Below, one piece after another: positions 4,150 to 27,489 of a stretch of 32,000 nucleotides of DNA. A model generated the notes under the pieces. The model had not been told where the DNA came from, made no database searches, and saw only the letters and a list, made by a program, of their open reading frames with translations. Origin of the DNA: an uncultured Fusibacter sp. GTDB taxonomy: Bacteria; Bacillota; Clostridia; Peptostreptococcales; Acidaminobacteraceae. The translations under genes and the position numbers were made by a program. Within the stretch, counting starts at the first letter, position 1, and every line of letters starts with the position of its first letter. The DNA lies in NCBI GenBank assembly GCA_963666805.2, contig CAXXWR010000003.1, positions 12,087 to 44,086 on the forward strand, read 5' to 3'.

Positions 4150-4194
4150 ATTGTAAAATTTTATTTAATCTGTCTCACAATGAGGAGGTTCTCT

Positions 4195-5556
4195 ATGAAG
4201 TATTCCCATAAGGTGTTATGGCTACTCTTATCAATTAATATCGTGTTTTCAAGTATTAATTTTGCCAATTCAGGTCCAATGACCATTGATGAATCTTCTG
4301 TCAATGGCATTTACAGTCTTTCAGATTCACCTGCTGAAGTCACACGTGAGGAACTTACTTTTAATTTTTCAAATCAGGACTTGCTTTACACCCCCACTTG
4401 TTCCGTCACTGCAGACTACCATCTTTATAATCCAACTGATGAACCATTAACTGTTCAAGTCGGGTTTCCATTAACCAGCTCTTTTAAGGCCCTAGAATCA
4501 AGAAGTCACATTGAGTATAACCAACAAACCATTCATCCCGATATCCAAGTTCGGCCTCAACTCTCAACAGTAGATAGCTCTTTTGATGAAATTATTCGTG
4601 CTTTTAATCATCAGTCTAATACCTATGACGCTCTTCAAAGCAAATCTATTGAACGTTATGAAATTCAGACCGATTTAGACCAACTTGCTGATGGCGAATC
4701 TATCACAATATATGTTCATTCTCCTCAAATTGATTCTATTTTATCAAAGGGATCTCGGTCTAGTGGTTTTCAAGATGACACATTCTTTTTTTCCTACGAT
4801 CAATACAGTCGACATCATTATTTTTATGTCATTGGTGGTCCCACTGACAATCTAACCTTTGAATACACTCAACATAATAAAATAGTGGATCATGCGTCAT
4901 CAATTGATTATGTTCATTCCCCTGTTACACTTGATGATTTTACAGCAGATCTTTTGTCCGAAATAGACCACCCCCGCCCCTTTTCAGATAAAGACCTCGT
5001 CAACTTGGCATTTGATAGTTTTGACTATTATCGTCGTAGTAAAGCAGGCGAGCTTATTTTTAACCTTGATGAAATAATGCTCTCACCCTATCAGTGGTAT
5101 TTAATGATGTATACTTATCACATTGAACTAGAACCACATAGTGAAAACAATATGGTCATTAGTTATGACATGAATGGCTTAATGGACCAAAGCGAAACCC
5201 AATATCCCCTTTATACTTATGAGTATTATTTAGATCCTGCTTCTCATTGGTCTGATTTTAATGATCTTACCATTAAGATTATCCCTCCTGATGAATCTCC
5301 TTATATTACTAATTCTAATATTACATTTAATCAAAATGAATCTTATTATGAAGCTCATTTTGATAACATCCCTGATGAAAAGCTCACTTTTACACTCAAT
5401 AAAGAAGCAACTCCAAGTCATTATAATCAGCAGAGCTCTTATGGTCTCCTTATTATTCTCTATATTGTTATGAGAGTGGCGATTATACTTATCCCTATAC
5501 TGGCAATCATTTTGATAATGAGACACCTTATTAAACGCAAAAATTCACAGCTATAA
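4195..5556 (+). CDS. hypothetical secreted protein with N-terminal signal peptide and C-terminal TM anchor
   Basis: ORF track starts at 4180, but the AGGAGG lies inside those codons, so ATG 4195 (MKYSHKVLWLLLSINIVFSSINFANS) is the likely start. C-terminal hydrophobic stretch YGLLIILYIVMRVAIILIPILAIILIM is followed by RHLIKRK. I recognise no family motif. Confidence 0.7.
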   Translation: MKYSHKVLWLLLSINIVFSSINFANSGPMTIDESSVNGIYSLSDSPAEVTREELTFNFSNQDLLYTPTCSVTADYHLYNPTDEPLTVQVGFPLTSSFKALESRSHIEYNQQTIHPDIQVRPQLSTVDSSFDEIIRAFNHQSNTYDALQSKSIERYEIQTDLDQLADGESITIYVHSPQIDSILSKGSRSSGFQDDTFFFSYDQYSRHHYFYVIGGPTDNLTFEYTQHNKIVDHASSIDYVHSPVTLDDFTADLLSEIDHPRPFSDKDLVNLAFDSFDYYRRSKAGELIFNLDEIMLSPYQWYLMMYTYHIELEPHSENNMVISYDMNGLMDQSETQYPLYTYEYYLDPASHWSDFNDLTIKIIPPDESPYITNSNITFNQNESYYEAHFDNIPDEKLTFTLNKEATPSHYNQQSSYGLLIILYIVMRVAIILIPILAIILIMRHLIKRKNSQL

Positions 5557-6674: not shown

Positions 6675-8948
6675 TTACAAATGAGTTAATGTTTGTCGTG
6701 ATTGATAGTCATATTCAATTTCTTTTTTGAGTTCATAGCAAGCATCATTGATATAAATTGATAAAGGCTTACCTGACAAGCATGTGATTCTACACTTATC
6801 AGCCACTTCAATTTTAATATGTCTGCCTTTAAAATAAATATAAAAACTATAAGCATCCCACTTTGAAGGCTTTTGCGGTCTAATATACAATTTTTCTTCA
6901 ATAATTCTTACCCCTGCAAAACCATAGATAACCCCCAATAAACTGCCTGAAATATTAGCCATATGCAAACCATCTTTTGTATTGCGATGGGTATCTTTTA
7001 AATCCATCACCCATGATTCATGCAAGTAATCATAAGCCTTCTCAATATCACCTAATCTCGCAGCCATAATCCCATAAATACAAGATGATAAAGAAGAATC
7101 ATGGGTCGTCACCTTTTCATAATATTCATAACCTTTTTTCATTTGAGATTCAGTCACCTCTTCTTCAAGAAGCATATGGGCTAACAAAGAATCTGCTTGT
7201 TTTAAGACTTGATGTCTATAAATCGCAAGGGGATGATAGTTTAACAATAAGGGTCTTTTCATATAATCTTCATTCTCAAAAGGCCAGACTGGTTTAGATA
7301 AAAAACTATCATCTTGAGCATAAAAAGACTTGTCTTTATCCATCGGATAATACATTCGTTCACTAGCCTTTTTCATTTGTTCAATTTCATCGTCTTCCAG
7401 AAAGATATGCATACACTTATCCTTAACAATATCTTTATAGGGTGAATGCAATAAACGTTGATAAATAATATTTAACCATTTAAAATGATGGGCTACCATC
7501 ACATTGGTATAATAATTATCATTAACAATGGCAGTATATTCATCAGGTCCAGTTACATCATATATATGAAAATGGCCATCATGATAATGTCCCATATCCA
7601 TAAAAACCCGTCCGGTTTCAATCAATACCTCTAATCCCTTTTTAGCCATAAATGCCAAATCATTTGTTGCTTGGTAATATTGGATAAAAGCATAGGCAAT
7701 ATCAGCATTAATATGGTATTGTGCCGTGCCCGCTGGAAAATAACCTGAAGATTCTATCCCTGAAATTGTCCGCCAAGCATACTTAGCCCCCTTTAGATGC
7801 CCTAATTTTCGAGCTTCTTCTCTGGACTCTGGTAAGCGTTTATAGCGATATTCAAGGAGTTTTTTAGCTCTTTTAGGATCGGTCAATAAGATCACCGGGA
7901 AAATATAAATCTCAGTATCCCAAAAATAATGACCTTCATAACCTTCTCCTGATAAACCTTTTGCAGAAACATTAGAGTAAGCATCTACGCCAACATTTTG
8001 TAACAGTTGAAACTGCATAAACCGTGTTGCAAAAGCTGCTGTATCGTCCCCTTCAATACTAATTTGAGTCCTTTTCCAGAACATGCCTAACTGATGGGCC
8101 TGTCTCTTGGTTAAACTTTCATAAGTCTCAAATGTAAATTCCTTAGATAATTTTCTAAGGTATTTTTCAGGTTCTGCTTGCCTTAGACTATCAGAAACAA
8201 AGCACCATTTTTCCAGTCTAATATTCCCCTTGCCGTTGACACGGGTAATTAATTGTTTGGACCGATTCTCATGGGATACATTCACCGAATGATGATTAAT
8301 GACATGATTAATTAAAGCCGTCACTTTAATGTGTGACTGGGTCGTCTTAAGTGTCATGACACAAGTATCCTCTTCAATCTCACCTTTTTCGTATTCAAGA
8401 AGTTTGGTCTGTCCTCTAGCTGTTCTTGGATCTTTATGATCACTATAATTTTCAATATCGCCATCTATCACACTAATCAGTTCAATCGCACCATCATAGT
8501 TTACTTCTGTTACTAATACAGCTAAGGATGGGCACTCTAATGAAACAACACGCTTAAAAGTTAATAAGGCCTTTTTTCCATTATCAGTATGATAGCAATA
8601 ACTTCTAATCGACTCACCGTTTTCAAAGTTGAGTCTTCGTGAATACTGTGAGGTTTTCCCCTGAATGAGTTGCGCACGTTCACCATCTAAAAAAACTTCG
8701 CAGGTTTGAAAATCCATTATTCTCGGTTGTCTGTCGTGTTCTTCAGGAAAACCATGCGCAAATTCGGCATGATTCATGGGCACACGTTCATAAAGCCCAT
8801 TAATATAAGTTCCTCTTATAGTATTCCCATGAGGATATTTTTCTTCAAAACACCCTCTTAAGCCTAAATAGCCATTACCTTGTACATATAAACTTTCTTC
8901 AATAAGTTGATTTTTTTCTTGATATTCTGTTTTCTCTAAATAATACAT
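6675..8948 (-). CDS. GH65 disaccharide phosphorylase (maltose/kojibiose/nigerose phosphorylase family)
   Basis: 757 aa. N-terminal 'ESLYVQGNGYLGLRGCFEE' and central 'GLSGEGYEGHYFWDTEIY' are typical GH65 signatures. No signal peptide. SD AAGGAG. Confidence 0.9.
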   Translation of the reverse strand: MYYLEKTEYQEKNQLIEESLYVQGNGYLGLRGCFEEKYPHGNTIRGTYINGLYERVPMNHAEFAHGFPEEHDRQPRIMDFQTCEVFLDGERAQLIQGKTSQYSRRLNFENGESIRSYCYHTDNGKKALLTFKRVVSLECPSLAVLVTEVNYDGAIELISVIDGDIENYSDHKDPRTARGQTKLLEYEKGEIEEDTCVMTLKTTQSHIKVTALINHVINHHSVNVSHENRSKQLITRVNGKGNIRLEKWCFVSDSLRQAEPEKYLRKLSKEFTFETYESLTKRQAHQLGMFWKRTQISIEGDDTAAFATRFMQFQLLQNVGVDAYSNVSAKGLSGEGYEGHYFWDTEIYIFPVILLTDPKRAKKLLEYRYKRLPESREEARKLGHLKGAKYAWRTISGIESSGYFPAGTAQYHINADIAYAFIQYYQATNDLAFMAKKGLEVLIETGRVFMDMGHYHDGHFHIYDVTGPDEYTAIVNDNYYTNVMVAHHFKWLNIIYQRLLHSPYKDIVKDKCMHIFLEDDEIEQMKKASERMYYPMDKDKSFYAQDDSFLSKPVWPFENEDYMKRPLLLNYHPLAIYRHQVLKQADSLLAHMLLEEEVTESQMKKGYEYYEKVTTHDSSLSSCIYGIMAARLGDIEKAYDYLHESWVMDLKDTHRNTKDGLHMANISGSLLGVIYGFAGVRIIEEKLYIRPQKPSKWDAYSFYIYFKGRHIKIEVADKCRITCLSGKPLSIYINDACYELKKEIEYDYQSRQTLTHL

Positions 8949-8961
8949 CTATTATGACTCC

Positions 8962-9900
8962 TTATTTCAATAAATCTTTAATGGCTGAAAGTGCACCTAC
9001 CCTAGTACACACTTTACCCGCTATTTGATTTGCAAAACGTGAAATAGCAATCATTTTTTCTTTATCCTCTAAAATTGATGGCATATCATTGTATTGCGCC
9101 AATTGGTAGATAACAGCACCTATAAAGGCATCTCCCGCACCGGTTGTGTCTTTTACTTCAATTTTTTCAGTTGTAACGTGTTCATCCCAATGAGGATTAA
9201 AAAGTCTGACGCCTTCTTTTCCAAGTGTAATTGTAAAAGTGGCTGAACTCATATGCTTCAACTCTTGAATGGCACTTTCTAAGTCTGACTGTCCTGTCAC
9301 AATCAAAGCCTCTTCATCACTCAATTTTACCAAGTGTGCTTTTCTTATAAAAGGTAACACTCGATCCTTAAAATCGTCAATATCTTCCTTCCAAAAATCA
9401 TTGCGATAATTGGGATCAAAAACAATCAACTTGCCTTCTCTTTGAGCTTGGTCCAATAGACAATGGTAGGTGTCTTGTAAGGGGCCTTCTAAGAAAGCGG
9501 TTGCTGCTCCAAAATGGATAATTTCAACTGCTTCAAGATGCTTCTGATTAATCCAATCATACTCTAAATCTGCATCTGCTCCACGAACAAAGGCAAATTC
9601 TCGTTCTCCCTCTTCATCTATAGACACAAAAGCCAGCGTCGTAGGCTTTTGACTCCGCTTTAACAAGGCAGTGCTAACACCAAACGTTTCTAGCTCCTCT
9701 TTTAAAAAGTCGCCAAAACCATCTTGACCAATTGACCCTAAAAAATAACACGACCCCTCAAGTGCAGAAATCGTGCAAGCAACATTTGCAGGCGCTCCCC
9801 CTGCTTGCTTATTAAAATGATCTTGATCCTTTAGACTCTTGCCTCTACTGAGTCCCATAAAATCAATTAGCATTTCGCCAACGCATACTATTTTTTTCAT
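8962..9900 (-). CDS. PfkB-family fructokinase
   Basis: 'GEMLIDF', 'GGAPANVA', 'DTTGAGDAFIGA' motifs. 13-nt gap to the GH65 gene. Confidence 0.85.
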   Translation of the reverse strand: MKKIVCVGEMLIDFMGLSRGKSLKDQDHFNKQAGGAPANVACTISALEGSCYFLGSIGQDGFGDFLKEELETFGVSTALLKRSQKPTTLAFVSIDEEGEREFAFVRGADADLEYDWINQKHLEAVEIIHFGAATAFLEGPLQDTYHCLLDQAQREGKLIVFDPNYRNDFWKEDIDDFKDRVLPFIRKAHLVKLSDEEALIVTGQSDLESAIQELKHMSSATFTITLGKEGVRLFNPHWDEHVTTEKIEVKDTTGAGDAFIGAVIYQLAQYNDMPSILEDKEKMIAISRFANQIAGKVCTRVGALSAIKDLLK

Positions 9901-9963
9901 TTTTCCTCCATTAACCGATCTGTCTCTTAAAAAGTGATTCCTGGCTTAAAACTTTCATTTTAA

Positions 9964-10956
9964 TCAAAGACTCTCTCTAATTATAATTTCATAAGGAAGT
10001 TCATAAACCATTAAGGGATTAACAACAGAGCCCTTGATTGATTCCATTAGTACTTGCCCTGCCAGGACCCCCTTTTCAAAGAAAGGTTGCTTTACTGTTG
10101 TCAGAGAAGGCGTTACCATCCGTGACAAATCAACATCATCAAATCCAATAAAGGCAATATCTTCTGGTACCTTATAACCACGCTCAAGTGCATATCTCAT
10201 AGCACCAATTGCCATGAAATCATTAGCACAGAATACGGCATCAATATGATTGTCTTGACCTAAAAGTGCTTTCATACACTGATAACCATCTTCAAATCGA
10301 TAATTGCCAGAGACAACAAGCGACTCATCAAACTGGTTCATCGCCTTCATCTTTTCTTCATAAGCTGCATAACGTGCTTTACCTGACTGTAAATCATTAA
10401 GCGGGCCTCTAATCATAGCGATTTTCTTCCTCTTATTATCTACAAACAACTGAATAATCGCACGAACGGCTTGTCGATTATCTATTTTTATAACAGGAAC
10501 ATCTTTATCAATTGTATCTGTTCCAATCATAACAAAAGGGGTTTCATCAATCCCCAGAGATGCTTTTGTATCATGTTCTTGATCGGAAATCAAAATCAAA
10601 CCATCTATATTTCTATTCAATAACATTTGGACTTGATCCTTTTTCTTATCTTCATCAAAATCAGTTGCCGCAATGACTAAAGCAAATTCAGTATCCCGCA
10701 TAATTGACTCAATCCCTGAAATAATTTCTGCAAAAACAGGATTCGATAAATCCGGAATAACAATTCCAATGAGATTCGAACGTTTTAATGAAAGTCCTCG
10801 AGCAGTTGGACTTGGACGATAGCCTGTCTGCTCGATAACTTTTAAAACACTTTCTTGCGCTGTTTTACTGACGGGTTTAGACTGATTTAAAACCCTTGAA
10901 ACAGTTGCTTTAGAAACCCCTGCTAATCTTGCAATATCATTTATGGTTACTTTCAT
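9964..10956 (-). CDS. LacI-family transcriptional regulator
   Basis: HTH 'MKVTINDIARLAGVSKATVSRVLN' followed by a periplasmic-binding-protein-like core. Start set at ATG 10956 (SD GGAGG upstream) rather than the ORF-track 10974. Confidence 0.9.
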   Translation of the reverse strand: MKVTINDIARLAGVSKATVSRVLNQSKPVSKTAQESVLKVIEQTGYRPSPTARGLSLKRSNLIGIVIPDLSNPVFAEIISGIESIMRDTEFALVIAATDFDEDKKKDQVQMLLNRNIDGLILISDQEHDTKASLGIDETPFVMIGTDTIDKDVPVIKIDNRQAVRAIIQLFVDNKRKKIAMIRGPLNDLQSGKARYAAYEEKMKAMNQFDESLVVSGNYRFEDGYQCMKALLGQDNHIDAVFCANDFMAIGAMRYALERGYKVPEDIAFIGFDDVDLSRMVTPSLTTVKQPFFEKGVLAGQVLMESIKGSVVNPLMVYELPYEIIIRESL

Positions 10957-10994
10957 GTGGCCTCCTTCAAGCAATATCTATTTATATAACTATA

Positions 10995-11855
10995 TCACTT
11001 GATAGCACCAGATACCATACCTTTGATGATGTGTTTTTGTCCAAAAATAAAACCAACAATAATAGGGGCAGCCGCCATAAGGACAGCAGTCATAATTAAA
11101 TCCCATTTTTTAACAAACGAACCAGCAAAGGCTCTGATCGCTAAAGGAATAGTTTGAATCTCTTGACCAACACCTAATACCAATGATGGTAAGAGGAAAT
11201 CGTTCCATATCCAAATAGCATTTAGGATACAAATAGTTACCACAATGGGTTTAAGAATTGGCATGACAATATAAAAGAAAATTTGTGGTTTTGAACACCC
11301 ATCTATCCAAGCTGCTTCCTCTAATTCCTTAGGGATTGATTTGATAAAACCATGAAACATGAAGACGGCAAGTGGCGCACCAAAACCAATATAAGCAAAA
11401 ATCATCCCATGATACGTTCTCAACATTGAAAGACCTGTCACTTCTGAAATGGTCCTAAAGAGTGAAACAAGTGGAAACATAACCACTTGGAAAGGAATAA
11501 CCAGACCTGCTACAAAAATAGTGAAAATAACAGCAGATTTTTTGCTTTTATTTCTGACTAATACCCAAGCAGCCATTGCAGAAAAAACAGCAATTAAAAC
11601 CAAGGAAGTCACAGTAATAACAACGGATGAAAAGACACTTGAAGCGTATCTTATACTCGGACTGGTCCAGATGGTTTTAATGTTCGTAAACAATTGTCCC
11701 CAATTTTGAGGCAGAGCAACTGGATCACTAATAATTTCTAATGACGCTTTGGCTGAATTGATAATAACGATAAAGAAAGGCGCCATTGTGAATATAAACA
11801 TGAGTACAGTAAGAATATAAATAATCGTTTTAACAAAGTTTTTTCTCAATTTCAT
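10995..11855 (-). CDS. carbohydrate ABC transporter permease (MalG-like, CUT1)
   Basis: Six hydrophobic segments. EAA-loop 'EEAAWIDGCSKPQIFFYIVMP'. The start ATG overlaps the upstream stop by 1 nt (ATGTAATG). Confidence 0.9.
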   Translation of the reverse strand: MKLRKNFVKTIIYILTVLMFIFTMAPFFIVIINSAKASLEIISDPVALPQNWGQLFTNIKTIWTSPSIRYASSVFSSVVITVTSLVLIAVFSAMAAWVLVRNKSKKSAVIFTIFVAGLVIPFQVVMFPLVSLFRTISEVTGLSMLRTYHGMIFAYIGFGAPLAVFMFHGFIKSIPKELEEAAWIDGCSKPQIFFYIVMPILKPIVVTICILNAIWIWNDFLLPSLVLGVGQEIQTIPLAIRAFAGSFVKKWDLIMTAVLMAAAPIIVGFIFGQKHIIKGMVSGAIK

Positions 11856-12763
11856 TACATTTCCACCTCTTTCCTTTTATTATAGTAAAGTTGAGCGATA
11901 GAAATAACAGAAAGCAACAAGAAGAATATAATCGCACGTGCTTGCCCTTCTGCCATATTATTATACTTAAAGGCAACATTATAGATATGAACCGCTAATA
12001 ATTCGGTGGAGTTCACGACTGTACCTTGGAACATTTCTGTCGGCCCCCCATTGGTTAAAGCGATGATAATATCATATTGCTTAAATGAATTAATGAGTGT
12101 TAAGAAAGAGGTTATTGTAAAGGCTTGTGCAATAAGCGGCAAGGTTATATTCTTGAATTTATGCCAGAAATTAGCACCGTCTATTTCTGCTGCCTCAATA
12201 AGTTCTTGTGGAACATTTAAAAGAGCAGCAACATAAATCATCATAATGTAACCTGCATATTGCCAAGTAAATGCAAAAATTAATCCAAAAAGAGTCCAGT
12301 TCGGATCAGCTAATAATAAAAGATTTTCTAACCATTCTATACCTAAGACCGTTCCAATTCCAGGGACGATGCTTTTAAATATAAATTGCCAAATATAACC
12401 TAATACTAAGCCTCCAATAAGGTTTGGTACAAAAAATCCAGCTCTAAAAACATTTCTAAACTTAATTTCTCGCGTCACCAAAACCGCCAATAATAGTGAA
12501 ATAACATTGATTGAAATCACACTTAATATTGTAAAGAGAAATGTTCTAATGAGCGAATATCTAAAACTAATATCTGAAAACATGTTACGATAATTTTGAA
12601 GCCCTACAAAAGAAGGCTTAAGTCCTTGTACAGCTGTCCAATCTGTTAATGAGTAATAGATTCCCATGATAAAGGGAATAATGACTACCAGAGAGAAAGC
12701 CAAAAGAGCCGGTGTTAAAAATCCCCAGAAAACAAGTTTTTCCCTTGATTTTCTACTTTTCAT
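11855..12763 (-). CDS. carbohydrate ABC transporter permease (MalF-like, CUT1)
   Basis: EAA-loop 'IEAAEIDGANFWHKFKNITLP'. Multi-TM protein. SD AAAGGAGG. Confidence 0.9.
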   Translation of the reverse strand: MKSRKSREKLVFWGFLTPALLAFSLVVIIPFIMGIYYSLTDWTAVQGLKPSFVGLQNYRNMFSDISFRYSLIRTFLFTILSVISINVISLLLAVLVTREIKFRNVFRAGFFVPNLIGGLVLGYIWQFIFKSIVPGIGTVLGIEWLENLLLLADPNWTLFGLIFAFTWQYAGYIMMIYVAALLNVPQELIEAAEIDGANFWHKFKNITLPLIAQAFTITSFLTLINSFKQYDIIIALTNGGPTEMFQGTVVNSTELLAVHIYNVAFKYNNMAEGQARAIIFFLLLSVISIAQLYYNKRKEVEM

Positions 12764-12816
12764 GATTTCCTCCTTTATGAGAAAGAGGCTTTTTTTGTCG
12801 TTCTATGATGGTAAAG

Positions 12817-12840
12817 AAAAGGGCAAAATTTTGCCCTTTT
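12817..12840 (-). terminator. intercistronic stem-loop/partial terminator after the binding-protein gene
   Basis: aaaagggcaaa / tttgccctttt perfect palindrome, followed on the minus strand by TTTTCTTT. This arrangement is typical for raising the SBP:permease transcript ratio. Confidence 0.55.
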
Positions 12841-12858
12841 CTCAAAAGCCCTAATTAA

Positions 12859-14106
12859 TTATTGACCGAGTTCTTCAATCTTTGCAGCAATTTGATCGAT
12901 AAAGCCTTGTTTATCAATATCACCTTTTGCATAACTTTCATAGATAGGTCCTAAAGTTCCCATACCAAAACCATCTGGCATGTCATTTTGTAACCAAGTA
13001 TAAGCAGTCCCCTTAGATAACCATTCTGCTGCATCAGCTGATAATGGTGTATCTGGTTTCAATTTTACATTTGTAAATGCTGGAACCATTTTAGCCTTAT
13101 TAACCATATAGTCATGACCTTTTTCATTGGTTGCCATGTAGTTTAAGAACGCTTTAGCTTCATCTAAATTTTTGCTGTCTTTATTAAGAACATAGAACGA
13201 AGGTGCACCAATAAAGATGCCATCAAATGTTCCTTTTACAGCAGCATGTGGTGCAAATCCCATTGGGAAATCTACGCCATTTTCAACTAACCAAGGATCA
13301 ATCCAGTTTCCTTGATGGATAAAGACAGATTTACCAGTAGCAAATTGTCCAACTTGTGCATCGTAATTACCTGTTAATAGGACACCTTCATCAGAATATT
13401 TAAAGAGCATCTCAACCCAGTCTGCATATTCTGTTAATCTTTCCATGTCCACTTCACCTTTATTTAATTTGTCTAAAACAGTTGTATCACCATAGTCTAG
13501 TCCTTCTGATAAGTAACCGTTAAAATTATGTAGTCCAGTTACCCATCTTAAATCCGGACCAGCACCCATTGCTACAACAGAATCAATCCCTAATTCATCT
13601 TTCATACTGTCAATTTTTTCAAATGCTGCCTTGTAACCTTCTTGTGAATTAAGTGTTGCAGGATCAACACCTGCTTGTTCTAATAAATTTTTGTTGTAAG
13701 CGAGTCCCCAAGCTTCTACTGATACTGGGAATCCATATACTTTATCATCTACTTTGAATTCAAGATCTGTTAAATCAATCCATTCATCACCATCAAATGG
13801 TGCTAATTTTGATTCCCAAGTTTTGTAACCGCCCATTCCTTCAATAACAAAGATATCAGGCTGTCTGTCTGTTTGGAACTCAGCTTTTAAAGTTTCCGCA
13901 TAAGGTGTGTCTCCACCCGACGTCTTAATGGTGACTTTAACACCAGTTTCTTCTTCATAAGCTGCTGCAAAAGCTGTTAATTGTTCACCAATTTCAACCT
14001 TATTTTGATAAATAACAACTGATTTGTCTTCTTGTTGGCCAGTACATCCCCCGAAAAGTCCTAGTACTAAGACCAATACCAATAATAAACCAAATGCTTT
14101 TTTCAT
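12859..14106 (-). CDS. ABC sugar-binding lipoprotein (family 1 extracellular solute-binding protein)
   Basis: Start set to ATG 14106 (SD GGGGGAG). Lipobox 'LGLFGGC'. SBP_bac_1-like sequence throughout. Confidence 0.9.
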   Translation of the reverse strand: MKKAFGLLLVLVLVLGLFGGCTGQQEDKSVVIYQNKVEIGEQLTAFAAAYEEETGVKVTIKTSGGDTPYAETLKAEFQTDRQPDIFVIEGMGGYKTWESKLAPFDGDEWIDLTDLEFKVDDKVYGFPVSVEAWGLAYNKNLLEQAGVDPATLNSQEGYKAAFEKIDSMKDELGIDSVVAMGAGPDLRWVTGLHNFNGYLSEGLDYGDTTVLDKLNKGEVDMERLTEYADWVEMLFKYSDEGVLLTGNYDAQVGQFATGKSVFIHQGNWIDPWLVENGVDFPMGFAPHAAVKGTFDGIFIGAPSFYVLNKDSKNLDEAKAFLNYMATNEKGHDYMVNKAKMVPAFTNVKLKPDTPLSADAAEWLSKGTAYTWLQNDMPDGFGMGTLGPIYESYAKGDIDKQGFIDQIAAKIEELGQ

Positions 14107-14204
14107 TGTTGCTCCCCCTTCTGTGGAATTATAGAGATGGTCATTTGCCATCTACAAGATTTTTTTACCCTAATCATATTTTTATAAAACTTAAAAGATA
14201 GACA

Positions 14205-16034
14205 TTATTGGTCTATTTTTTTCAGCACGAGAAATTCAAGTGGACCTAACAGTATCGTTTCCGCAAATAAATCTACTGTTTTTCCTTGAAGACATTCTTC
14301 ATAAGTCCCATCAATCCCATTGCGTTTAAGATCTGTTGTATAAAGCCATTGTCTGTCTTCAGACAGATTAAAGGCAAGTAGGTATTCATCTTTTTCATTA
14401 AACTGATGAACCACCAAAACATGATCATTAGACTGAACTACTATTCTTTCGGATTGGCGATGTTGAATTTGTCCTCTTAACTTGATAAGTGCTTTTATAT
14501 GATTAAATATCATGGCTTGCTCTTGAGTAGGATGTGTTACCATATTCCAATCAAAAGCGCCTCGGTGTAACCACCTTGAGTCATGACATTTATGAGGGTC
14601 CAATTTATAAGAATAATCATTGAGACGACCTACTTCGTCGCCACTATATATCATTGGAATGCCTTTTCTTAATATAAAAAGAGCATTCATTAAATAAATC
14701 CGTTTAAGTGCCAATTCTTTTTGATAAGCATCTTTCTGTTCAAGTGCTTTTTCAAGCCCACATAAGCTTGCAAAAGTGCCTGAATTTCTAGCATCCATGG
14801 TTTCAGCATTAAACTCATAGAGTTCACCTTTTGCAAAACTATCTTTAACTGAACCGTAATAGAAATCAATTAGAAACATCTTATGTGCTTGAGGATCAAA
14901 CCCTAGATGTCTTAGATTATCTTCATTAAGTCCCCAACCAATATCATCGTGACATCTCGCATAATTTATCCAATGTGCATCTCGAGGTAATTTCCAATCT
15001 GGCATCATAGCCAAATGCCTTGCGTCTCTAGTTGCCAATGCATTCCATAGTTCAACCATATAGGAAGCATTATAAAGCACATGACATTCTGGAAAGGAAT
15101 CTGTTCCAAAATATTTGATGATTTCTTCAGGTGTCACAATGGCTTCTCCCAGTAAGGCTGTTGACGGTGCAAAAACTTCACTAATTTCTCTCAGCAAGTT
15201 CATGAGAATATGAACTTCCTTTAAATTACGACTAGATGTTCCTAGTTTTTTCCATATATATGGAATCGCATCTAGTCTGATCATATCAATGCCAATATTC
15301 ATCATAAAGAGCATTTGTTCAACGACCACGTTAAAAACCTCTGGATTATCATAATTTAAATCCCATTGAAAAGGATAAAAAGTCGTCATAACCCATTTCT
15401 GAACAGCGTCTAAATAGGTGAAATTACCTGGCGCAATTTTTGGAAAAACCTGATTAAGCGTTTTTTCAAACGTTTTTGGGATATCATCTGTTTCATAAAA
15501 TCTATAATAGGATTGATAAGGCTCAATGCCTTCTAGTGCTTTTTGAGCCCACTCATGATCATTTGCCGTATGATTGAGAACATAATCTATTGCCACTCTA
15601 ATGCCTCGGTCGTGACATTTTTTAATAATGCGAATAAAAGTTTCCATATTCCCCAAGCGAGGTTCAATTTCTTGATAAGAACTTACCGCATAACCGCCAT
15701 CATTATCACCTTGTCTTGTCTTAAGCAAAGGCATAAAGTGAATGAGTGTTACACCCAAGTCTTCAAAGTAGTCAATTTTCTTTTCAAAAGCATTTAAGTC
15801 TCCAGAAAAAAGGTCAACATAAAGCATCATGCCAACAGTTTTCCCATCAGATAGCCACTTGGTGCTATTCAAATCTCTGGCTCTGAGTATTTCAGATCTT
15901 TGGTTATAATATGTATCGAGCAGTTCCAATAACTGATCAAAAGCAGTATCTGCACCTGGATACAAGCGTGTGTATTGTTCATATAGATATTTCTTCCTTA
16001 AAGATAACCCTGCTTCAAATTTTGATTGACTCAT
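14205..16034 (-). CDS. cytoplasmic GH13 amylosucrase-like enzyme (amylosucrase / sucrose hydrolase type)
   Basis: Start set to ATG 16034 (SD GGAGG). GH13 regions I-IV: 'DYVLNH', 'GIDMIRLDAIPY', 'LLGEAIV', 'YARCHDDIGW'. The last two closely recall amylosucrase 'SEAIV' and 'SHDDIGW'. No signal peptide. Confidence 0.8.
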   Translation of the reverse strand: MSQSKFEAGLSLRKKYLYEQYTRLYPGADTAFDQLLELLDTYYNQRSEILRARDLNSTKWLSDGKTVGMMLYVDLFSGDLNAFEKKIDYFEDLGVTLIHFMPLLKTRQGDNDGGYAVSSYQEIEPRLGNMETFIRIIKKCHDRGIRVAIDYVLNHTANDHEWAQKALEGIEPYQSYYRFYETDDIPKTFEKTLNQVFPKIAPGNFTYLDAVQKWVMTTFYPFQWDLNYDNPEVFNVVVEQMLFMMNIGIDMIRLDAIPYIWKKLGTSSRNLKEVHILMNLLREISEVFAPSTALLGEAIVTPEEIIKYFGTDSFPECHVLYNASYMVELWNALATRDARHLAMMPDWKLPRDAHWINYARCHDDIGWGLNEDNLRHLGFDPQAHKMFLIDFYYGSVKDSFAKGELYEFNAETMDARNSGTFASLCGLEKALEQKDAYQKELALKRIYLMNALFILRKGIPMIYSGDEVGRLNDYSYKLDPHKCHDSRWLHRGAFDWNMVTHPTQEQAMIFNHIKALIKLRGQIQHRQSERIVVQSNDHVLVVHQFNEKDEYLLAFNLSEDRQWLYTTDLKRNGIDGTYEECLQGKTVDLFAETILLGPLEFLVLKKIDQ

Positions 16035-16056
16035 TTTTAATCCTCCGTATAAATCC

Positions 16057-16085
16057 ATTTTAGGAAACCGGTTTCATCTTGTCAA
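16057..16085 (-). promoter_or_regulatory. sigma-A promoter TTGACA-17-TAAAAT with palindromic LacI/CcpA-type operator in the spacer
   Basis: Minus strand: TTGACA (16085-16080), 17-nt spacer, TAAAAT (16062-16057). The spacer contains TGAAACCGGTTTCC (16076-16063), with perfect core GAAACCGGTTTC. Confidence 0.75.
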
Positions 16086-16357: not shown

Positions 16358-18358
16358 CTACGAAAATTGAGAAGGATGCTTTTCAAAGAAATCAAATTTA
16401 GGTGGTATTTCAACGATTTGATGGTTTGTAGGATCGTCCATATGGGCAGTAATCGGTTTCATAATATAGTCCCATGACCATACTGTTTCATTTAAATTAA
16501 GGTGCTCAAGCGCACGTTCAGCACTTTCAGGCACAATTGGATGAAGAAGTGTCAAGGTTGATTTAACCCCATAGAAGGCATCTGCCAATACTTGTTGTCT
16601 CATTTCATCACTGTCTGCATCATCTGCAGCCTTCATTTCTCTTGCCCAGAGTTTACTAAGGGATCTGATTAAACTATCCATGGTATAAATCACACGATGA
16701 AACTCTTGTTTAGACATATTGAGTTCATAGTCTAATACGCCCTTTTCAACAATCGCACGAACCTCTTCAGAAGGATCTAAAGTTGGTACTTTTCTATCTG
16801 TGTATTTTTGTGACGTATAGAAACATGAACGCATTAAACGATTAAAAACGTTAGTGAGTAAATTGCCATCTTTAAGAACCACATCTGCCTCATTAGGATC
16901 TGCAGACGGATCATATGGTTTAGGACTAAAACTAACACTCTTTTTAGATAATCCCAAACTTAAAAAGTGCATTCTAAGTTGATCTTTTGTATAGTGTGAT
17001 AACAATTCATCTGCCATAGGTGGTTTGATATCACTTGAGCTGCTGGCTTTTGAATCTAAGAACAGTAAATGACAATTCGATACTAAATGTGGAAAATTAA
17101 TAGCATCTATTTCTCTTGGATCATCCTTTTGATAACCCAGGTAAGACATTAACATAGCCATTTCTGCTATACCATAAAAATAAATATTATCTTCTCCAAT
17201 AAATTGGTAAACTTGAGAACTATCTTCTATCCACCAATCTTTCCATTCAGAAGGATCTTTGCCGATTGATTCAAGATATGTTTGTGTAAAAGACACAGGT
17301 GCCCAAAGCGATTCTGGCCATACCCAGAAAGTCAAATCCTCTAAGCCGTCCTTATTAGGTACCGGAACCCCCCACTCAATATTGCCTGATAGTCTAAACG
17401 GCACAAGTGTCTTACCTGTACGGTATCTTATACTATTGGCATCTAACCGCCCTCTAGCTATATCTCTCGCATCTAAAGAGTCAAAGACATAGGTCACCGA
17501 TGGCTTTTTAGGTTCATCTATAAGTTGAGCATGGTCTAAAGTCATATTGGCTTCGAGCATTTTATCATATTCTTTACGTGTAATATAAATTTCTGGATCT
17601 TTCAAAAATTCATCGGTTACTTTGATGACCATTGGTCTCACTTTACGCTCTTTACGCATCTTATTGACCATTTTTTTCATTTGATCTTGGTATTCATCTA
17701 AAACATAATACCAATTCACTACTTCTTTAAGTTCTGGTTTTTTCCCAGAAAGCGTTGAAATAGGATCAACTAATTCATTAGGCATATATTGATGCCCTAG
17801 GGCACATTCATCTGCATAAGCTTTATCAGATTGACAGCCTTCAAAAGGACATTTCCCAACGACTTGTCTACCATTTAGAAAAACTTCTTCATCATGATCA
17901 TAGAATTGTAATGTGGAAAGTTTTTTAAGATAGCCACCTTCATAAAGTTGGTTAAAGAGTTCCTTCGAAACAGCCTTATGGACTTCTCCACTTCTTCCGT
18001 AAGCTGATGAAGCAAATAAACTAGGTGCAACATCATAATCACTTAAAGTTTGTTTTTGAAGGGTATGAAAATGATAGACGTAGTCTTCTAAATTTTCATA
18101 TTCTAGTTTTTCACCTTCATGTTCATCACAATATTTCTTATAACTGGCCAAAATAGGAGAACCATAGCAGTCAGTTCCCGAAACGAAAATGACATTTTCT
18201 TCGCCAATTCTGTCTTTTAAAAATCTAGCATAGGTATCTGCATGAATAAACACGCCACCTATGTGTCCAAAGTGCAATGACTTATTGCCATAAGGCATGC
18301 CCGCGGTAATCACAGCTTTTTTGGGGAAAACCGGTCTCGGTCTTTTAAATGGTTTCAT
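16358..18358 (-). CDS. metG: methionyl-tRNA-synthetase-fold class I aaRS homologue, divergent (would be auto-annotated methionine--tRNA ligase)
   Basis: 'MPYGNKSLHFGHIGGVFIHADTYARFL' (HIGH), 'GTDCYGSPI', zinc knuckle 'GKCPFEGCQSDKAYADEC', 'WGVPVP', 'FWVWPES', 'FIGEDNIYFY', and 'KASSS' at the KMSKS position. SD GGAGG. Monocistronic between the T-box and its terminator. Confidence 0.75.
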   Translation of the reverse strand: MKPFKRPRPVFPKKAVITAGMPYGNKSLHFGHIGGVFIHADTYARFLKDRIGEENVIFVSGTDCYGSPILASYKKYCDEHEGEKLEYENLEDYVYHFHTLQKQTLSDYDVAPSLFASSAYGRSGEVHKAVSKELFNQLYEGGYLKKLSTLQFYDHDEEVFLNGRQVVGKCPFEGCQSDKAYADECALGHQYMPNELVDPISTLSGKKPELKEVVNWYYVLDEYQDQMKKMVNKMRKERKVRPMVIKVTDEFLKDPEIYITRKEYDKMLEANMTLDHAQLIDEPKKPSVTYVFDSLDARDIARGRLDANSIRYRTGKTLVPFRLSGNIEWGVPVPNKDGLEDLTFWVWPESLWAPVSFTQTYLESIGKDPSEWKDWWIEDSSQVYQFIGEDNIYFYGIAEMAMLMSYLGYQKDDPREIDAINFPHLVSNCHLLFLDSKASSSSDIKPPMADELLSHYTKDQLRMHFLSLGLSKKSVSFSPKPYDPSADPNEADVVLKDGNLLTNVFNRLMRSCFYTSQKYTDRKVPTLDPSEEVRAIVEKGVLDYELNMSKQEFHRVIYTMDSLIRSLSKLWAREMKAADDADSDEMRQQVLADAFYGVKSTLTLLHPIVPESAERALEHLNLNETVWSWDYIMKPITAHMDDPTNHQIVEIPPKFDFFEKHPSQFS

Positions 18359-18520
18359 TACTTAACGCCTCCACATCATTATTTTAAATCCACTAATAAA
18401 GTGAAAAATAGATCCATAAAAACATTGCTCTTGAATGATTTACAACTACAATCGTTTGGATTCATCTATTTGCTTCATATATTATGTTTTCTTTCAATGG
18501 TTTACTTCAATTTTAATAAT

Positions 18521-18808
18521 AAAAAACGCCCCTACATGCTTTTAAACATGCAGGGGCGATAAACTGTCACAGATTCGTCACAAGTCCTCTATCGCGGTAC
18601 CACCCTAATTTGGTCTCAGCGAGTATTTAACTCTTCTCCTTTAACGGTGAGTTGCCGTCATTATATCCGTCCTTAAACATCCAAAATGAAGCTCCAAGTC
18701 TTGGTTCGTGTTAACGCCAGTATTTCCTTCTCAGCATCAGAAATTCTCTGTGACCTTAATTAACATTACTCTTCTCTTCTTCGCCTTTAAAAGAATTATA
18801 AAGGTCTG
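18521..18808 (-). promoter_or_regulatory. T-box riboswitch leader (transcription attenuation type)
   Basis: Minus strand: K-turn, AGUA/GAA S-turn, AG bulge AGAGA, distal loop GCUGAGA, F-box CCGUUA. T-box AAUUAGGGUGGUACCGCG lies at 18610-18593. Terminator CGCCCCUGCAUG...CAUGUAGGGGCG plus U6 lies at 18559-18521. Confidence 0.9.
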
Positions 18809-18814
18809 TCTTTT

Positions 18815-18843
18815 AAAAGTCAAGGTGATTTCAAGGCTAAATC
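18815..18843 (-). promoter_or_regulatory. sigma-A promoter of the T-box leader
   Basis: Minus strand: TTGACT (18843-18838), 17-nt spacer, TATAAT (18820-18815). Confidence 0.8.
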
Positions 18844-22574: not shown

Positions 22575-23216
22575 ATGAAATGGTTTCAAATAGATAGCCC
22601 CTTGTTTCAGACACTCAATACAATAAGTGATGTCATTTTACTTAATCTCTACTTTTTAGTTACAGTTATTTTCACCTTAGGCATCGGACTTGGTTCTGGT
22701 GTAACTGCTCTTATCTATGCTATTTATCATGGGTTTAGACGGCATGAAGGCAAAATGAGACAGGCTTACGTTAAAAGCTTTAAAGCCAACTTTAAATCAA
22801 TTACGCCCTATAGCCTCTTAATAATGGCACTTATTTTTATCATCCAATGGGTACCTAACTATTTAGAACTCATGAGTTCTCAGTTTTATCAAGCTATACA
22901 GTATTTCATTACTACAGAATTGATTTTACAATTTCTTTATGTCTGTGCGCAGCAATCTAAAATTAAATTATCAATTAAAGACAGTATTAAGAACAGTTTT
23001 CTACTGATTCATCGGCATCTTCTCACGACCCTTATTGTATTAGTAAGCCTCATCATTTGTTTGGCTTCTCTCTATGTCTTAAAAGGTCTATCAGTCCTCT
23101 TTGTTTTTGCCGTTTCTGCCTTTGTCCTCGAATACTTTGTTCTCGAAAAACTCTTAATTGCACACTATATGCCTGAAACAATGGCCAATCAACTTAAAAT
23201 ACAAAAGCTACAGTAG
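22575..23216 (+). CDS. DUF624/YesL-like integral membrane protein
   Basis: N-terminal 'FQIDSPLFQTLNTISDVILLNLYFLV' resembles YesL-family proteins. Several TM segments. SD GAAGGAG. Confidence 0.6.
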   Translation: MKWFQIDSPLFQTLNTISDVILLNLYFLVTVIFTLGIGLGSGVTALIYAIYHGFRRHEGKMRQAYVKSFKANFKSITPYSLLIMALIFIIQWVPNYLELMSSQFYQAIQYFITTELILQFLYVCAQQSKIKLSIKDSIKNSFLLIHRHLLTTLIVLVSLIICLASLYVLKGLSVLFVFAVSAFVLEYFVLEKLLIAHYMPETMANQLKIQKLQ

Positions 23217-26140: not shown

Positions 26141-26992
26141 ATGAAACAAAAAGGAATTATCTATATCATATTATCGGCACTCTTCTTCTCTATTATGGCG
26201 GCATTTGTTAAAAGTGTCCCTCAGTTACCACTTTCTGAGAAAATGTTTTTCCGAAATTTCATAGGATTGATTGCCGTTGCAGTGACACTTTTAAAAACAA
26301 AACAGTCTATCAAAGTCAATCATAAACCCCTCATGTTTTTTAGAGCAGCTTTTGGACTGACTGGGGTTGGATTATACTATGCAGCCCTTTCGAAAATGCC
26401 TCTTGCCAATGCAGTTATTCTCAATAAACTCTCTCCCTTTTTTGTTGTTATTTTCGCAGGGATATTCTTAAAAGAAATCATTGGACCTAAACAAAGAATA
26501 GCTTTGGTTCTCAGTATCATTGGTGCCTTGTTAGTTATTCAACCTAATTTAGATTTTGACCTACTGCCTGCTCTCTTGGCGCTTGGATCTGCCTTATTCG
26601 CTGGAGCAGCCTATACAGTGGTTAGAAAACTGACAAGCTATGATCATCCGACAATCATTGTCTTTTATTTTTGTTTAATTTCAAGTATTGTATTGATTCC
26701 TTTTATGATGATTGAGGGATTTATTGTGCCTAGTTTGACTCAATTGATTAGTTTATTAGGCATTGGAATTTCAGCACTTTTAGCTCAACTATTTATGACT
26801 AATGCCTATCAATATGCCCCTGCAAGCGAACTCTCTATTTACACTTATATCAATATTGTCTTTTCCTCTATGTGGGGTCTTATTATCTGGGGCGAATTTC
26901 CCAATTGGATCGCTATCCTTGGAGCCAGCATTATCATTCTTGCTGCTTTTCTTAATTATCTTAGTAAAAAACAAAGACAAGTTAAGTCATAG
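26141..26992 (+). CDS. EamA/DMT-superfamily transporter (10-TM type)
   Basis: Two EamA-like halves, ten hydrophobic segments, SD AGGAGG. Confidence 0.9.
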   Translation: MKQKGIIYIILSALFFSIMAAFVKSVPQLPLSEKMFFRNFIGLIAVAVTLLKTKQSIKVNHKPLMFFRAAFGLTGVGLYYAALSKMPLANAVILNKLSPFFVVIFAGIFLKEIIGPKQRIALVLSIIGALLVIQPNLDFDLLPALLALGSALFAGAAYTVVRKLTSYDHPTIIVFYFCLISSIVLIPFMMIEGFIVPSLTQLISLLGIGISALLAQLFMTNAYQYAPASELSIYTYINIVFSSMWGLIIWGEFPNWIAILGASIIILAAFLNYLSKKQRQVKS

Positions 26993-27009
26993 TGATTATC
27001 TTAAAATAA

Positions 27010-27040
27010 AAATGTCCTCTCTAGGGGACATTTTTATTTT
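27010..27040 (+). terminator. rho-independent terminator
   Basis: aaatgtcctc (27010-27019) pairs with ggggacattt (27024-27033), followed by a T-run. Confidence 0.75.
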
Positions 27041-27081
27041 CTTAATATGAAGTTAAGTTTATTAGAAGAAAAAACAAGATT

Positions 27082-27489
27082 ATGGCAGCATTTGTTAAAA
27101 GTGTTCCTCATTTGCCACTTTCAGAAAAAATATTTTTTAGGAACTTTATAGGCTTAATTGCTATTACAGTGACACTTTTAAGAACAAAACAATCTATCAG
27201 CGTTAATCATAAACCGCTCATGTTTTTCAGAGCAGCTTTTGGTCTCGGTGCTAGTGGCTTGTACTATGCCTCTCTTTCCAAAATGCCCCTTGCCAATGCA
27301 GTTATTCTCAATAAACTCTCTCCCTTTTTTGTTGTTATTTTAGCAGGTGTATTCTTAAAAGAAATCATTGGACCTAAGCAAAGAGTAGCTCTGCTTATCG
27401 GTGTCATTGGTGCTTTAATAGGAACCTTGCTTATCATCTTAGCCGCTTTTCTTAATTATCTTAGTCGAAAGCAACCGATTAACTCATAG
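27082..27489 (+). pseudogene. diverged, 5'-truncated and internally deleted tandem copy of the EamA transporter gene
   Basis: 27082-27417 aligns with 26195-26530 (codons 19-130 of the full gene), and the last ~20 codons align with its 3' end. The middle ~130 codons are absent but the frame is kept. No SD upstream; the copy starts inside TM1. Confidence 0.7.

Follow-up and report, generated by a model that had tools for sequence, protein, structure and literature searches.

What does a synthetase with the fold of methionyl-tRNA synthetase (MetRS) charge, and with which amino acid, once its methionine pocket has been rewritten? The question is raised by an open reading frame (ORF) of 666 amino acids on the minus strand of a 32,000-nucleotide stretch of DNA from an uncultured Fusibacter sp. 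(contig CAXXWR010000003.1; this whole stretch is hereafter the window). The original prediction, made from the ORF alone, missed the T-box leader that precedes the gene and is the most informative feature of the locus. It had left two readings side by side, a housekeeping MetRS that has diverged strongly or a paralogue whose specificity has changed, of which the second is now favoured and the first disfavoured. Judging from its sequence, the product is not a methionyl-tRNA synthetase, because it scores under all curated MetRS cut-offs, because both the methionine pocket and the Pro-Trp motif of the anticodon site are replaced, and because its T-box reads glutamine. We predict instead a glutaminyl-tRNA synthetase (GlnRS)-like enzyme of MetRS ancestry that would charge tRNA-Gln with glutamine, and we give this prediction an even chance of being correct. 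It follows from the rule that the specifier of a synthetase T-box normally matches the amino acid of the enzyme, and from a catalytic core and an anticodon-binding domain that are intact. There is a substantial chance that the family represents a genuinely new synthetase type for glutamine.

The gene and its rebuilt methionine pocket

The ORF and all peptides quoted from it in the original prediction were found in place (MPYGNKSLHFGH, GTDCYGSPI, CPFEGCQSDKAYADECALGH, WGVPVP, TFWVWPESLWAP, FIGEDNIYFYGIAEMAML, KASSS, NVFNRLMRS and KLWAREMK), and the MetRS fold recognised there was confirmed. Pfam PF09334 (tRNA-synt_1g) matches the product with an E value of 1.2e-61, and alignment to a canonical MetRS profile with hhalign gives a probability of 100% at 22% identity over 528 columns. 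The AlphaFold model (pLDDT 89.3; pTM 0.90) retrieves only MetRS among its top 27 Foldseek matches, with TM-scores normalised to the target of 0.75-0.85; among these is the enzyme from P. abyssi (PDB: 1RQG; E value 1e-33), which is also the best solved relative. The product nevertheless fails the cut-off of each of the NCBIfam MetRS equivalogs, NF001100 (223.8 vs 587), TIGR00398 (191 vs 336.35) and NF008900 (68.4 vs 598), a profile check that had been proposed with the original prediction, whereas two canonical MetRS controls from the same search (P0202 and P0210) score about 750. Profile searches of the protein gave no match to the GlnRS/GluRS catalytic domain (PF00749, TIGR00440/glnS), Pfam and profile scans detected no domains beyond the MetRS-type ones, and NCBIfam release 20 contains no model dedicated to the family described below.

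A protein search over 5.8 billion sequences yielded 120 relatives among the matches listed, at 57-100% identity, the closest named one among them being from Fusibacter (74% identity). Most either lack a name or go under "class I tRNA ligase family protein"; the label "methionine--tRNA ligase" is attached to a few. One relative, P0002, bears the precomputed domain PF27737. A scan of one genome per GTDB species confirmed at least 590 loci; the family thus occurs in at least 590 species. Most of these are Clostridia, and the carriers include Lachnospiraceae, Ruminococcus, Clostridium, Herbinix, Vallitalea and Fusibacter; no phage-borne copies of the gene were found. The features of the protein and the evidence for each are as follows.

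16358..18358, minus strand: ORF of 666 amino acids, a MetRS-fold class I synthetase paralogue ("class I tRNA ligase family protein"), from profile, structural and database searches
18263..18295, minus strand: PYGNK-SL-HFGH, with the HIGH motif kept and Lys26 in place of the canonical Gly18, from the alignment of family and canonical sequences
17792..17851, minus strand: zinc knuckle of the CP domain, Cys170/Cys175/Cys185/His189, invariant in 47 sequences
17384..17602, minus strand: insertion of about 73 residues (253-325) at the junction of the CP domain and the second Rossmann half, without counterpart in the canonical MetRS profile
17297..17320, minus strand: WPESLWAP, the rebuilt pocket wall, equivalent to W253-Y260 of MetRS, in 47 of 47 members
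17159..17197, minus strand: GEDNIYFYGIAEM, the rebuilt pocket floor (K295E, H301Y, W305E, P306M), from the column comparison
17012..17050, minus strand: KASSS...KPPMA loop, the KMSKS equivalent, followed by the invariant Lys445, from the alignments
16439..16882, minus strand: helical anticodon-binding domain (KDGNLLTNVFNRLxRSCFYT) with Pro460-Trp461 lost, from its high conservation and a weak match to Pfam Anticodon_1

For the column comparison, 47 family members (down to 58% identity) were set against 22 canonical MetRS, of which the E. coli sequence was checked and is identical to 1F4L. Residues A256, Y260, H301, P306 and P460 are present in all 22 canonical sequences and W461 in 21 of them, and every one of these is replaced in the family. 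The columns of A256, Y260 and H301 are occupied by S350, P354 and Y395, each in 47 of 47 members; P306 has become M400 (44/47), K295 has become E389 (47/47), W305 has become E399 (45 Glu and two Gln) and P460 has become K576 (45/47), while the position of W461 is variable. The exchanges of Lys for Glu, His301 for Tyr and Trp305 for Glu that had been read from the single sequence therefore hold throughout, or nearly so. The accompanying claim that A256, P257 and Y260 are lost stands in part. Canonical MetRS reads W(F/L)(D/E)AP(I)GY where the family has WPESLWAP, and an alternative gapped alignment to E. coli MetRS introduces a three-residue insertion, SLW, after which A256 and P257 are retained as A353 and P354 and Y260 becomes F357. 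Under either alignment the Tyr260 hydroxyl is absent from the family. The rewriting of the pocket is real and does not reflect decay; the replacements are mostly invariant within a large family.

The remaining motifs qualify the original prediction in both directions. KASSS does align with KMSKS, and the second lysine is lost as stated, but this is not diagnostic, because the same position is Thr in 9 of the 22 canonical MetRS and the P. abyssi enzyme has KFSTS. The second half of the zinc knuckle, reported as gone, is present: C170, C175, C185 and H189 are invariant and make up a Cys3-His site, in which the E. coli residues C145, C148 and C158 align with family ligands, although the pLDDT of the model is low at residues 184-188. 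The insertion of tens of residues was correctly seen. In the full model it forms a small alpha/beta module (10-residue blocks averaging pLDDT 84-91), whereas modelled by itself it shows no fold (pLDDT 46). Residues Y15, D52, W253 and D296 of MetRS are conserved in the family. Invariant across the 47 members are H29, H32 and K26, the last at a position that is mostly Gly in canonical MetRS, as well as the motifs GMPYGNK, GTDCYGSP, TFWVWPESLWAP, GEDN..FYG and KASSS..KPPMA. Because HIGH, D63 (= D52), D390 (= D296), the first Lys of the KMSKS loop, the zinc ligands and a long stretch of the anticodon-binding helix are all invariant as well, the enzyme looks active.

A descent of the family from archaeal-type MetRS is suggested by a rough neighbour-joining tree, in which the family, divergent KA(S/A)SS subfamilies and a sister clade retaining KMSKS make up one monophyletic group beside archaeal-type MetRS. 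The 73-residue insertion is common to the family and this sister clade, which comprises P0157, P0176, P0187 and P0200 at about 30% identity, one of them named as coming from a metagenome-assembled genome (MAG) of Pseudomonadota. These four proteins keep KMSKS, GTDDHG and PYANG and share with the family WPESLIAPISF and the change of H301 to Tyr, with Gln at the position of W305. They too score under the MetRS cut-off (311-392 vs 587), and the clade may represent an intermediate stage in the evolution of the family or a further synthetase with a changed target, outside Firmicutes. A relative from Actinomycetota with 42% identity was also noted in NZ_OY725717.1 (3386-9364; Collinsella aerofaciens "plasmid 6", 900 kb), between queA/queH of queuosine synthesis and a gene for an RNA methyltransferase of the RsmB family; it seems that a piece of chromosome was deposited here as a plasmid.

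The upstream T-box leader and its specifier

The 676-bp gap 5' of the ORF holds a complete transcription unit, with promoter, T-box leader, terminator and ribosome-binding site.

18795..18823, minus strand: sigma-70-type promoter, TTGACT-17-TATAAT, directly 5' of the leader (11 of 12 consensus matches; function inferred from position)
18549..18790, minus strand: T-box riboswitch leader, Rfam RF00230 (94.6 bits vs a gathering score of 93; E value 9.4e-20)
18701..18703, minus strand: specifier codon CAA (Gln), from the Rfam consensus geometry, in the context GAA-C-CAA-G (18700-18707)
18593..18606, minus strand: T-box core AGGGUGGUACCGCG, whose UGGU (18599-18602) pairs with the tRNA 3' end NCCA
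18517..18558, minus strand: intrinsic terminator, a 14-bp stem (8 G-C pairs) and then a T-run, the 5' arm overlapping the 3' strand of the antiterminator
18368..18372, minus strand: ribosome-binding site GGAGG, 9 nt 5' of the ATG, by direct reading of the sequence

The match to RF00230 spans the full model (positions 1-219). Single-sequence minimum free energy folding of Stem I was uninformative (z-score +1.1), and covariance-model alignments and comparative data were used instead. On these, the leader is a transcriptional T-box of the canonical kind, in which a specifier loop and a UGGN bulge are combined with a terminator that competes with an antiterminator.

To read the specifier, a rule was taken from the Rfam geometry, namely GAA, one nucleotide, the codon, a purine and a helix, and it was applied to 41 leaders of the family, 26 of which had been sampled independently of their specifier (24 genome loci, the window and L106). 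The specifier is CAA in 37 and CAG in three, with a further CAG read by eye in L058, and AUG occurs in none of the 41. The base following it is G in 38 of 40 leaders. The frame is favoured because CAA and CAG are synonymous only there; in the shifted frames the same alternation would specify Lys and Arg, or Thr, Ala and Pro. The +1 frame, with AAG (Lys) as specifier, was considered and rejected, for the CAG variants would then give AGG (Arg), the next base would be variable with no conserved purine, and UGGC would be unable to pair with A73. The same rule was applied to two positive controls on a Clostridium celatum contig (L108), where thrS has ACU (Thr) in its leader and gltX has GAA (Glu). 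That the specifier of a synthetase gene reports its cognate amino acid is a principle used previously (PMC2494555), and it was taken as confirmed because the two controls read Thr and Glu.

The variable base of UGGN provides a second indication. Bacterial tRNA-Gln has a G73 discriminator, while tRNA-Met and tRNA-Lys have A73. Among the 41 leaders, 23 have C and 18 have U as the variable base, in agreement with the G73 of tRNA-Gln, and a C at this position would be incompatible with the A73 of tRNA-Met or tRNA-Lys. No tRNA-Gln gene was found in the collected loci.

Metagenomes were scanned with a generic pattern (T-box core, spacer, and CAA followed by a purine) that had been derived from these same leaders, so that some bias is expected in its 25 matches. 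Seventeen of them are genuine T-boxes, of which 16 precede a member of the MetRS-like family, one an MFS-type transporter, and none a canonical glnS. The transporter leader (L103, 130-372; 93.3 bits) has an apparent CAA specifier, and the transporter itself is a candidate for a glutamine-related role. By itself the pattern lacks specificity, as group II introns in L089 and L104 matched a loose form of it by chance. Some leaders from Clostridium and Lachnospiraceae (L005, 1632-1810; L106, L006, L008) carry lineage-specific insertions of 54-161 nt after Stem I, which push their Rfam scores under the gathering threshold. Two assemblies hold two gene copies each, every copy with its own Gln T-box, namely one Herbinix MAG (L024 and L027) and one whole-genome shotgun project, JDSF01 (L083 and L105). 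In the latter pair the first long ORF begins more than 400 nt past the leader and matches the protein only in part, which could be due to frameshifts, pseudogenes or a parsing artefact. In the T-box database TBDB, Gln specifiers are among the rarest classes and A-ending codons are preferred (PMC7778990), and the preference for CAA in the family leaders matches this pattern.

Candidate functions and genomic context

We infer amino-acid substrate, tRNA substrate and physiological role together. The gene would be transcribed from its own promoter through the T-box. Uncharged tRNA-Gln would pair both with the CAA specifier and with the UGGN bulge, allowing the antiterminator to form and the ORF to be transcribed, while without uncharged tRNA-Gln transcription would end at the terminator hairpin, at 18558-18527. 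Glutamine is close to methionine in size and shape. Within the retained fold, the hydrophobic, sulfur-recognising pocket (A256, Y260, H301, W305) has become a polar one (S350, N391, Y395 and E399 in family numbering), which would suit a carboxamide and repel or disfavour glutamate. The Pro-Trp pair that stacks on C34 of tRNA-Met is gone from the anticodon site. Because at least two Clostridium assemblies also encode a canonical GlnRS, the enzyme would serve in such genomes as an inducible second isozyme, made when the charging of tRNA-Gln falls. If this is extended to the whole family, it would constitute a third evolutionary route to Gln-tRNA-Gln in Clostridia and some relatives, beside class Ib GlnRS and the GluRS/GatCAB pathway, through a class Ia enzyme derived from MetRS by rebuilding of its amino-acid pocket and anticodon site and expressed via a rare Gln T-box; we advance this wider proposal tentatively, at somewhat under an even chance.

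Several observations weigh against the assignment as a glutamine-charging enzyme. Among the 90 family loci that extend far enough upstream, a T-box is present in only 41 (24 of the 80 loci from the genome scan). The family is patchy in its distribution, even inside genera, and the copy of R. albus 7 lies on a conjugative megaplasmid, both of which fit an accessory role. The more distant KA(S/A)SS subfamilies do not conserve Glu399. In the anticodon helix N506, R507 and R510 are invariant and N503 nearly so, but their register relative to N391/R395 of MetRS differs among three aligners, which leaves the correspondence ambiguous. Finally, a canonical GlnRS (736 bits vs a cut-off of 426) is encoded on the same contig in L005 and L106, so that the MetRS-like enzyme would not be needed there as the sole GlnRS and another role connected with tRNA-Gln is possible.

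In Clostridium sensu stricto the MetRS-like gene with its Gln T-box is found 1.8 kb from canonical glnS (L005) or immediately convergent with it (L106, EKQ57494 and EKQ57495), and no T-box belonging to glnS itself was found in either locus. In Oscillospiraceae and Ruminococcus gltX is directly upstream on the same strand, with a gap of 15-37 nt in six loci, and encodes either a standard GluRS of 484 amino acids (507 bits) or a divergent form of 552 amino acids that scores near the cut-off. The megaplasmid pRUMAL02 of R. albus 7 (NC_014825.1, 131-4468) opens with a GluRS-family gene, a gene for a hypothetical protein of 171 amino acids without annotation, and the MetRS-like gene; the GluRS-like protein scores 278.6, under the cut-off of 290. 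Neither the gltX-linked operons nor R. albus yielded a T-box. Apart from a generic cluster of ABC-transporter ATPases (10 of 80 loci, at varying positions), gltX is the only recurrent neighbour in the 80 genome-scan loci. Around the window gene the neighbours are unrelated.

An activity linked to glutamine or tRNA-Gln other than its direct charging is the alternative that survives best, although we regard it as unlikely. It would comprise amide-forming synthesis of glutamine in the manner of AsnA, modification of tRNA-Gln in the manner of GluQRS, or the attachment of a non-standard amino acid to tRNA-Gln. AsnA and GluQRS provide precedents as paralogues of aminoacyl-tRNA synthetases (aaRS), and the coexisting canonical GlnRS, the family-specific 73-residue insertion and the new invariant Lys26 could all be accommodated. 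T-boxes also govern genes of biosynthesis and transport (PMC2494555), as does apparently the Gln T-box before the MFS-type transporter of L103. On the other hand, AsnA and GluQRS are paralogues without an anticodon-binding domain, whereas the family has kept a full and highly conserved one. The core for adenylation of an alpha-carboxyl group is also intact, and no partner enzyme is conserved across the family in the 80 loci.

Next in likelihood, and in our view improbable, is a glutamyl-tRNA synthetase specific for tRNA-Gln, analogous to GluRS2, which would place Glu on tRNA-Gln for amidation by GatCAB and so offer an indirect route when direct charging fails. The Gln T-box senses only a free 3' end, so that any enzyme acylating tRNA-Gln would fit it, and co-transcription with gltX in Ruminococcus and Oscillospiraceae is in keeping with such a role. 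GluRS2 is a known solution in other bacteria (PMC3927822), and a MetRS-fold domain can bind a glutamyl-adenylate analogue (PDB: 9L8V). The amino-acid pocket argues the other way. The MetRS-like domain of the hydrazine synthetase PyrN binds the carboxylate of Glu via Arg390 and Arg425 (bioRxiv 10.1101/2025.08.22.671884). Because Arg425 lies five residues past the conserved Asp420, the same spacing as that of H301 from D296 in MetRS, we infer by analogy that it occupies the H301-equivalent position, in which case specificity in this fold would be determined at that position. The family has Tyr there and no Arg, with Glu at the position of W305, and overall its pocket has gained acidic or neutral-polar residues (E389, E399, Y395, S350) without the Arg390 and Arg425 of the PyrN type.

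The two other alternatives are poorly supported. A tRNA-independent amino-acid ligase of secondary metabolism, comparable to the MetRS-like domain of the hydrazine synthetases PyrN, Spb40 and Tri28, is very improbable. These are the only class of MetRS paralogue found described in the literature search (PMC2922099; bioRxiv 10.1101/2025.08.22.671884), they too have altered amino-acid specificity and a KFSTG-type loop, and 9L8V is among the structural matches. Yet domain scans and the 80 loci revealed no cupin domain or lysine N-monooxygenase either fused to the family or conserved nearby, the family profile matches 9L8V with an E value of 1.6e-8 as against 1.9e-60 for P. abyssi MetRS (1RQG), and the T-box, gltX and glnS contexts point to translation, with no biosynthetic cluster in the window. 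Least probable of all, and barely credible, is a divergent but genuine MetRS, for although the fold, the best database match, the name methionine--tRNA ligase in some sources and the retained Y15, D52, W253 and D296 speak for it, the scores far under all curated cut-offs, the replacement of A256, Y260, H301, P306 and P460/W461, the 41 Gln specifiers of 41 with no AUG, and the patchy occurrence with one copy on a megaplasmid speak against it; that it might be the sole MetRS of a clade is very unlikely, because a sole MetRS would not sit under the control of tRNA-Gln.

Some further observations concern the surroundings of these genes. The megaplasmid pRUMAL02 (353 kb) is typed as conjugative and would be a chromid if either of its synthetase genes were essential. 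In a plasmid collection, many E. coli, E. albertii and Shigella plasmids (about 60-115 kb) carry near-identical metG, and other E. coli and Salmonella plasmids (about 75-95 kb) carry glnS; plasmids of such size with full-length housekeeping synthetase genes may be phage-plasmids. On the C. celatum contigs L108 and L109 (10001-14693), glnS is convergent with a gene for a divergent "long" GluRS of 553 amino acids that bears its own Glu (GAA) T-box and holds the position beside glnS that the MetRS-like gene has in L106; besides the thrS T-box (ACU), the contig has a SAM riboswitch and a purine riboswitch. In the window itself, the minus strand of 6675-16058 holds a locus for the utilisation of a disaccharide or alpha-glucan, with a GH13 alpha-amylase-family enzyme, an ABC sugar transporter (binding protein and two permeases), a LacI-type regulator, a PfkB kinase and a GH65 phosphorylase, and an Na/Pi cotransporter is also encoded. 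Two plus-strand ORFs, 4180-5556 (458 amino acids) and 22575-23216 (213 amino acids), have no Pfam match at E <= 1e-5. At 26141-27489, on the plus strand, a complete two-domain EamA transporter (283 amino acids) is followed by a separate single-EamA ORF of 135 amino acids, which may be a partial duplication or a split gene.

Relation to known systems

Pairs of unrelated synthetases for one amino acid are, to our knowledge, few, with the class I and class II forms of LysRS as the classic case, and we know of very few natural synthetase lineages that have changed both amino acid and tRNA. If the prediction is correct, the family would provide a new route to Gln-tRNA-Gln and a natural identity switch of amino acid and tRNA from one synthetase subclass to another, on a par with the discovery of class I LysRS. 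It would also explain the target of the rare Gln-specifier T-boxes, and offer a natural blueprint for the re-engineering of MetRS, already a workhorse for the incorporation of non-canonical amino acids. Annotation would also need correcting for a family that spans at least 590 species and thousands of database sequences, many of them from bacteria of the gut and rumen, which at present are called "methionine--tRNA ligase" or left without a specific name. Even with a different substrate, a conserved MetRS paralogue regulated by tRNA-Gln would be a well-defined and testable target. A literature search aimed at the family found no description of it, and surveys of aaRS paralogues and of GluRS/GlnRS evolution make no mention of a MetRS-like enzyme tied to tRNA-Gln.

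The closest likeness is to MetRS of the archaeal and eukaryotic type (P. abyssi, 1RQG; compare E. coli, 1F4L), with which the family shares the Rossmann core with HIGH, the CP domain with its zinc knuckle, the KMSKS-type loop and the helical anticodon-binding domain. It differs in an identity of only about 22%, in the replaced pocket invariants and Pro-Trp motif, in the 73-residue insertion, Lys26 and the Cys3-His zinc site, and in a T-box that, wherever present, would respond to tRNA-Gln and not to tRNA-Met. GlnRS (glnS, class Ib) would have the same substrate pair, Gln and tRNA-Gln, as predicted from the specifier and the association with glnS and gltX, but the family has no specific homology to the catalytic or anticodon domains of GlnRS or GluRS. 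If the prediction holds, it is therefore an analogue of GlnRS and not a member of that group. The hydrazine synthetases (PyrN, Spb40/Tri28; 9L8V) are likewise derived from MetRS, with a pocket retargeted in their case to Glu, Gly, Ser, Ala or Tyr and a loop without the second Lys; the similarity to them is distant (E value 1.6e-8), and the family differs in its T-box control and in having no extra domains.

A parallel in regulation is provided by B. cereus, which has a class II LysRS and, in addition, a class I LysRS (lysK) controlled by a T-box (PMC2916919). There, an amino acid that is already served by a housekeeping enzyme has a second, structurally unrelated synthetase, placed under a T-box for the tRNA of that amino acid. 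The layout here is matching, with a MetRS-like gene under a Gln T-box and a glnS without one. LysRS1, however, is ancient and biochemically proven, whereas the present family is derived from MetRS and its function is predicted. The Gln-specifier subclass of RF00230, finally, is rare in TBDB (PMC7778990), and in our sample it is almost wholly dedicated to the MetRS-like family.

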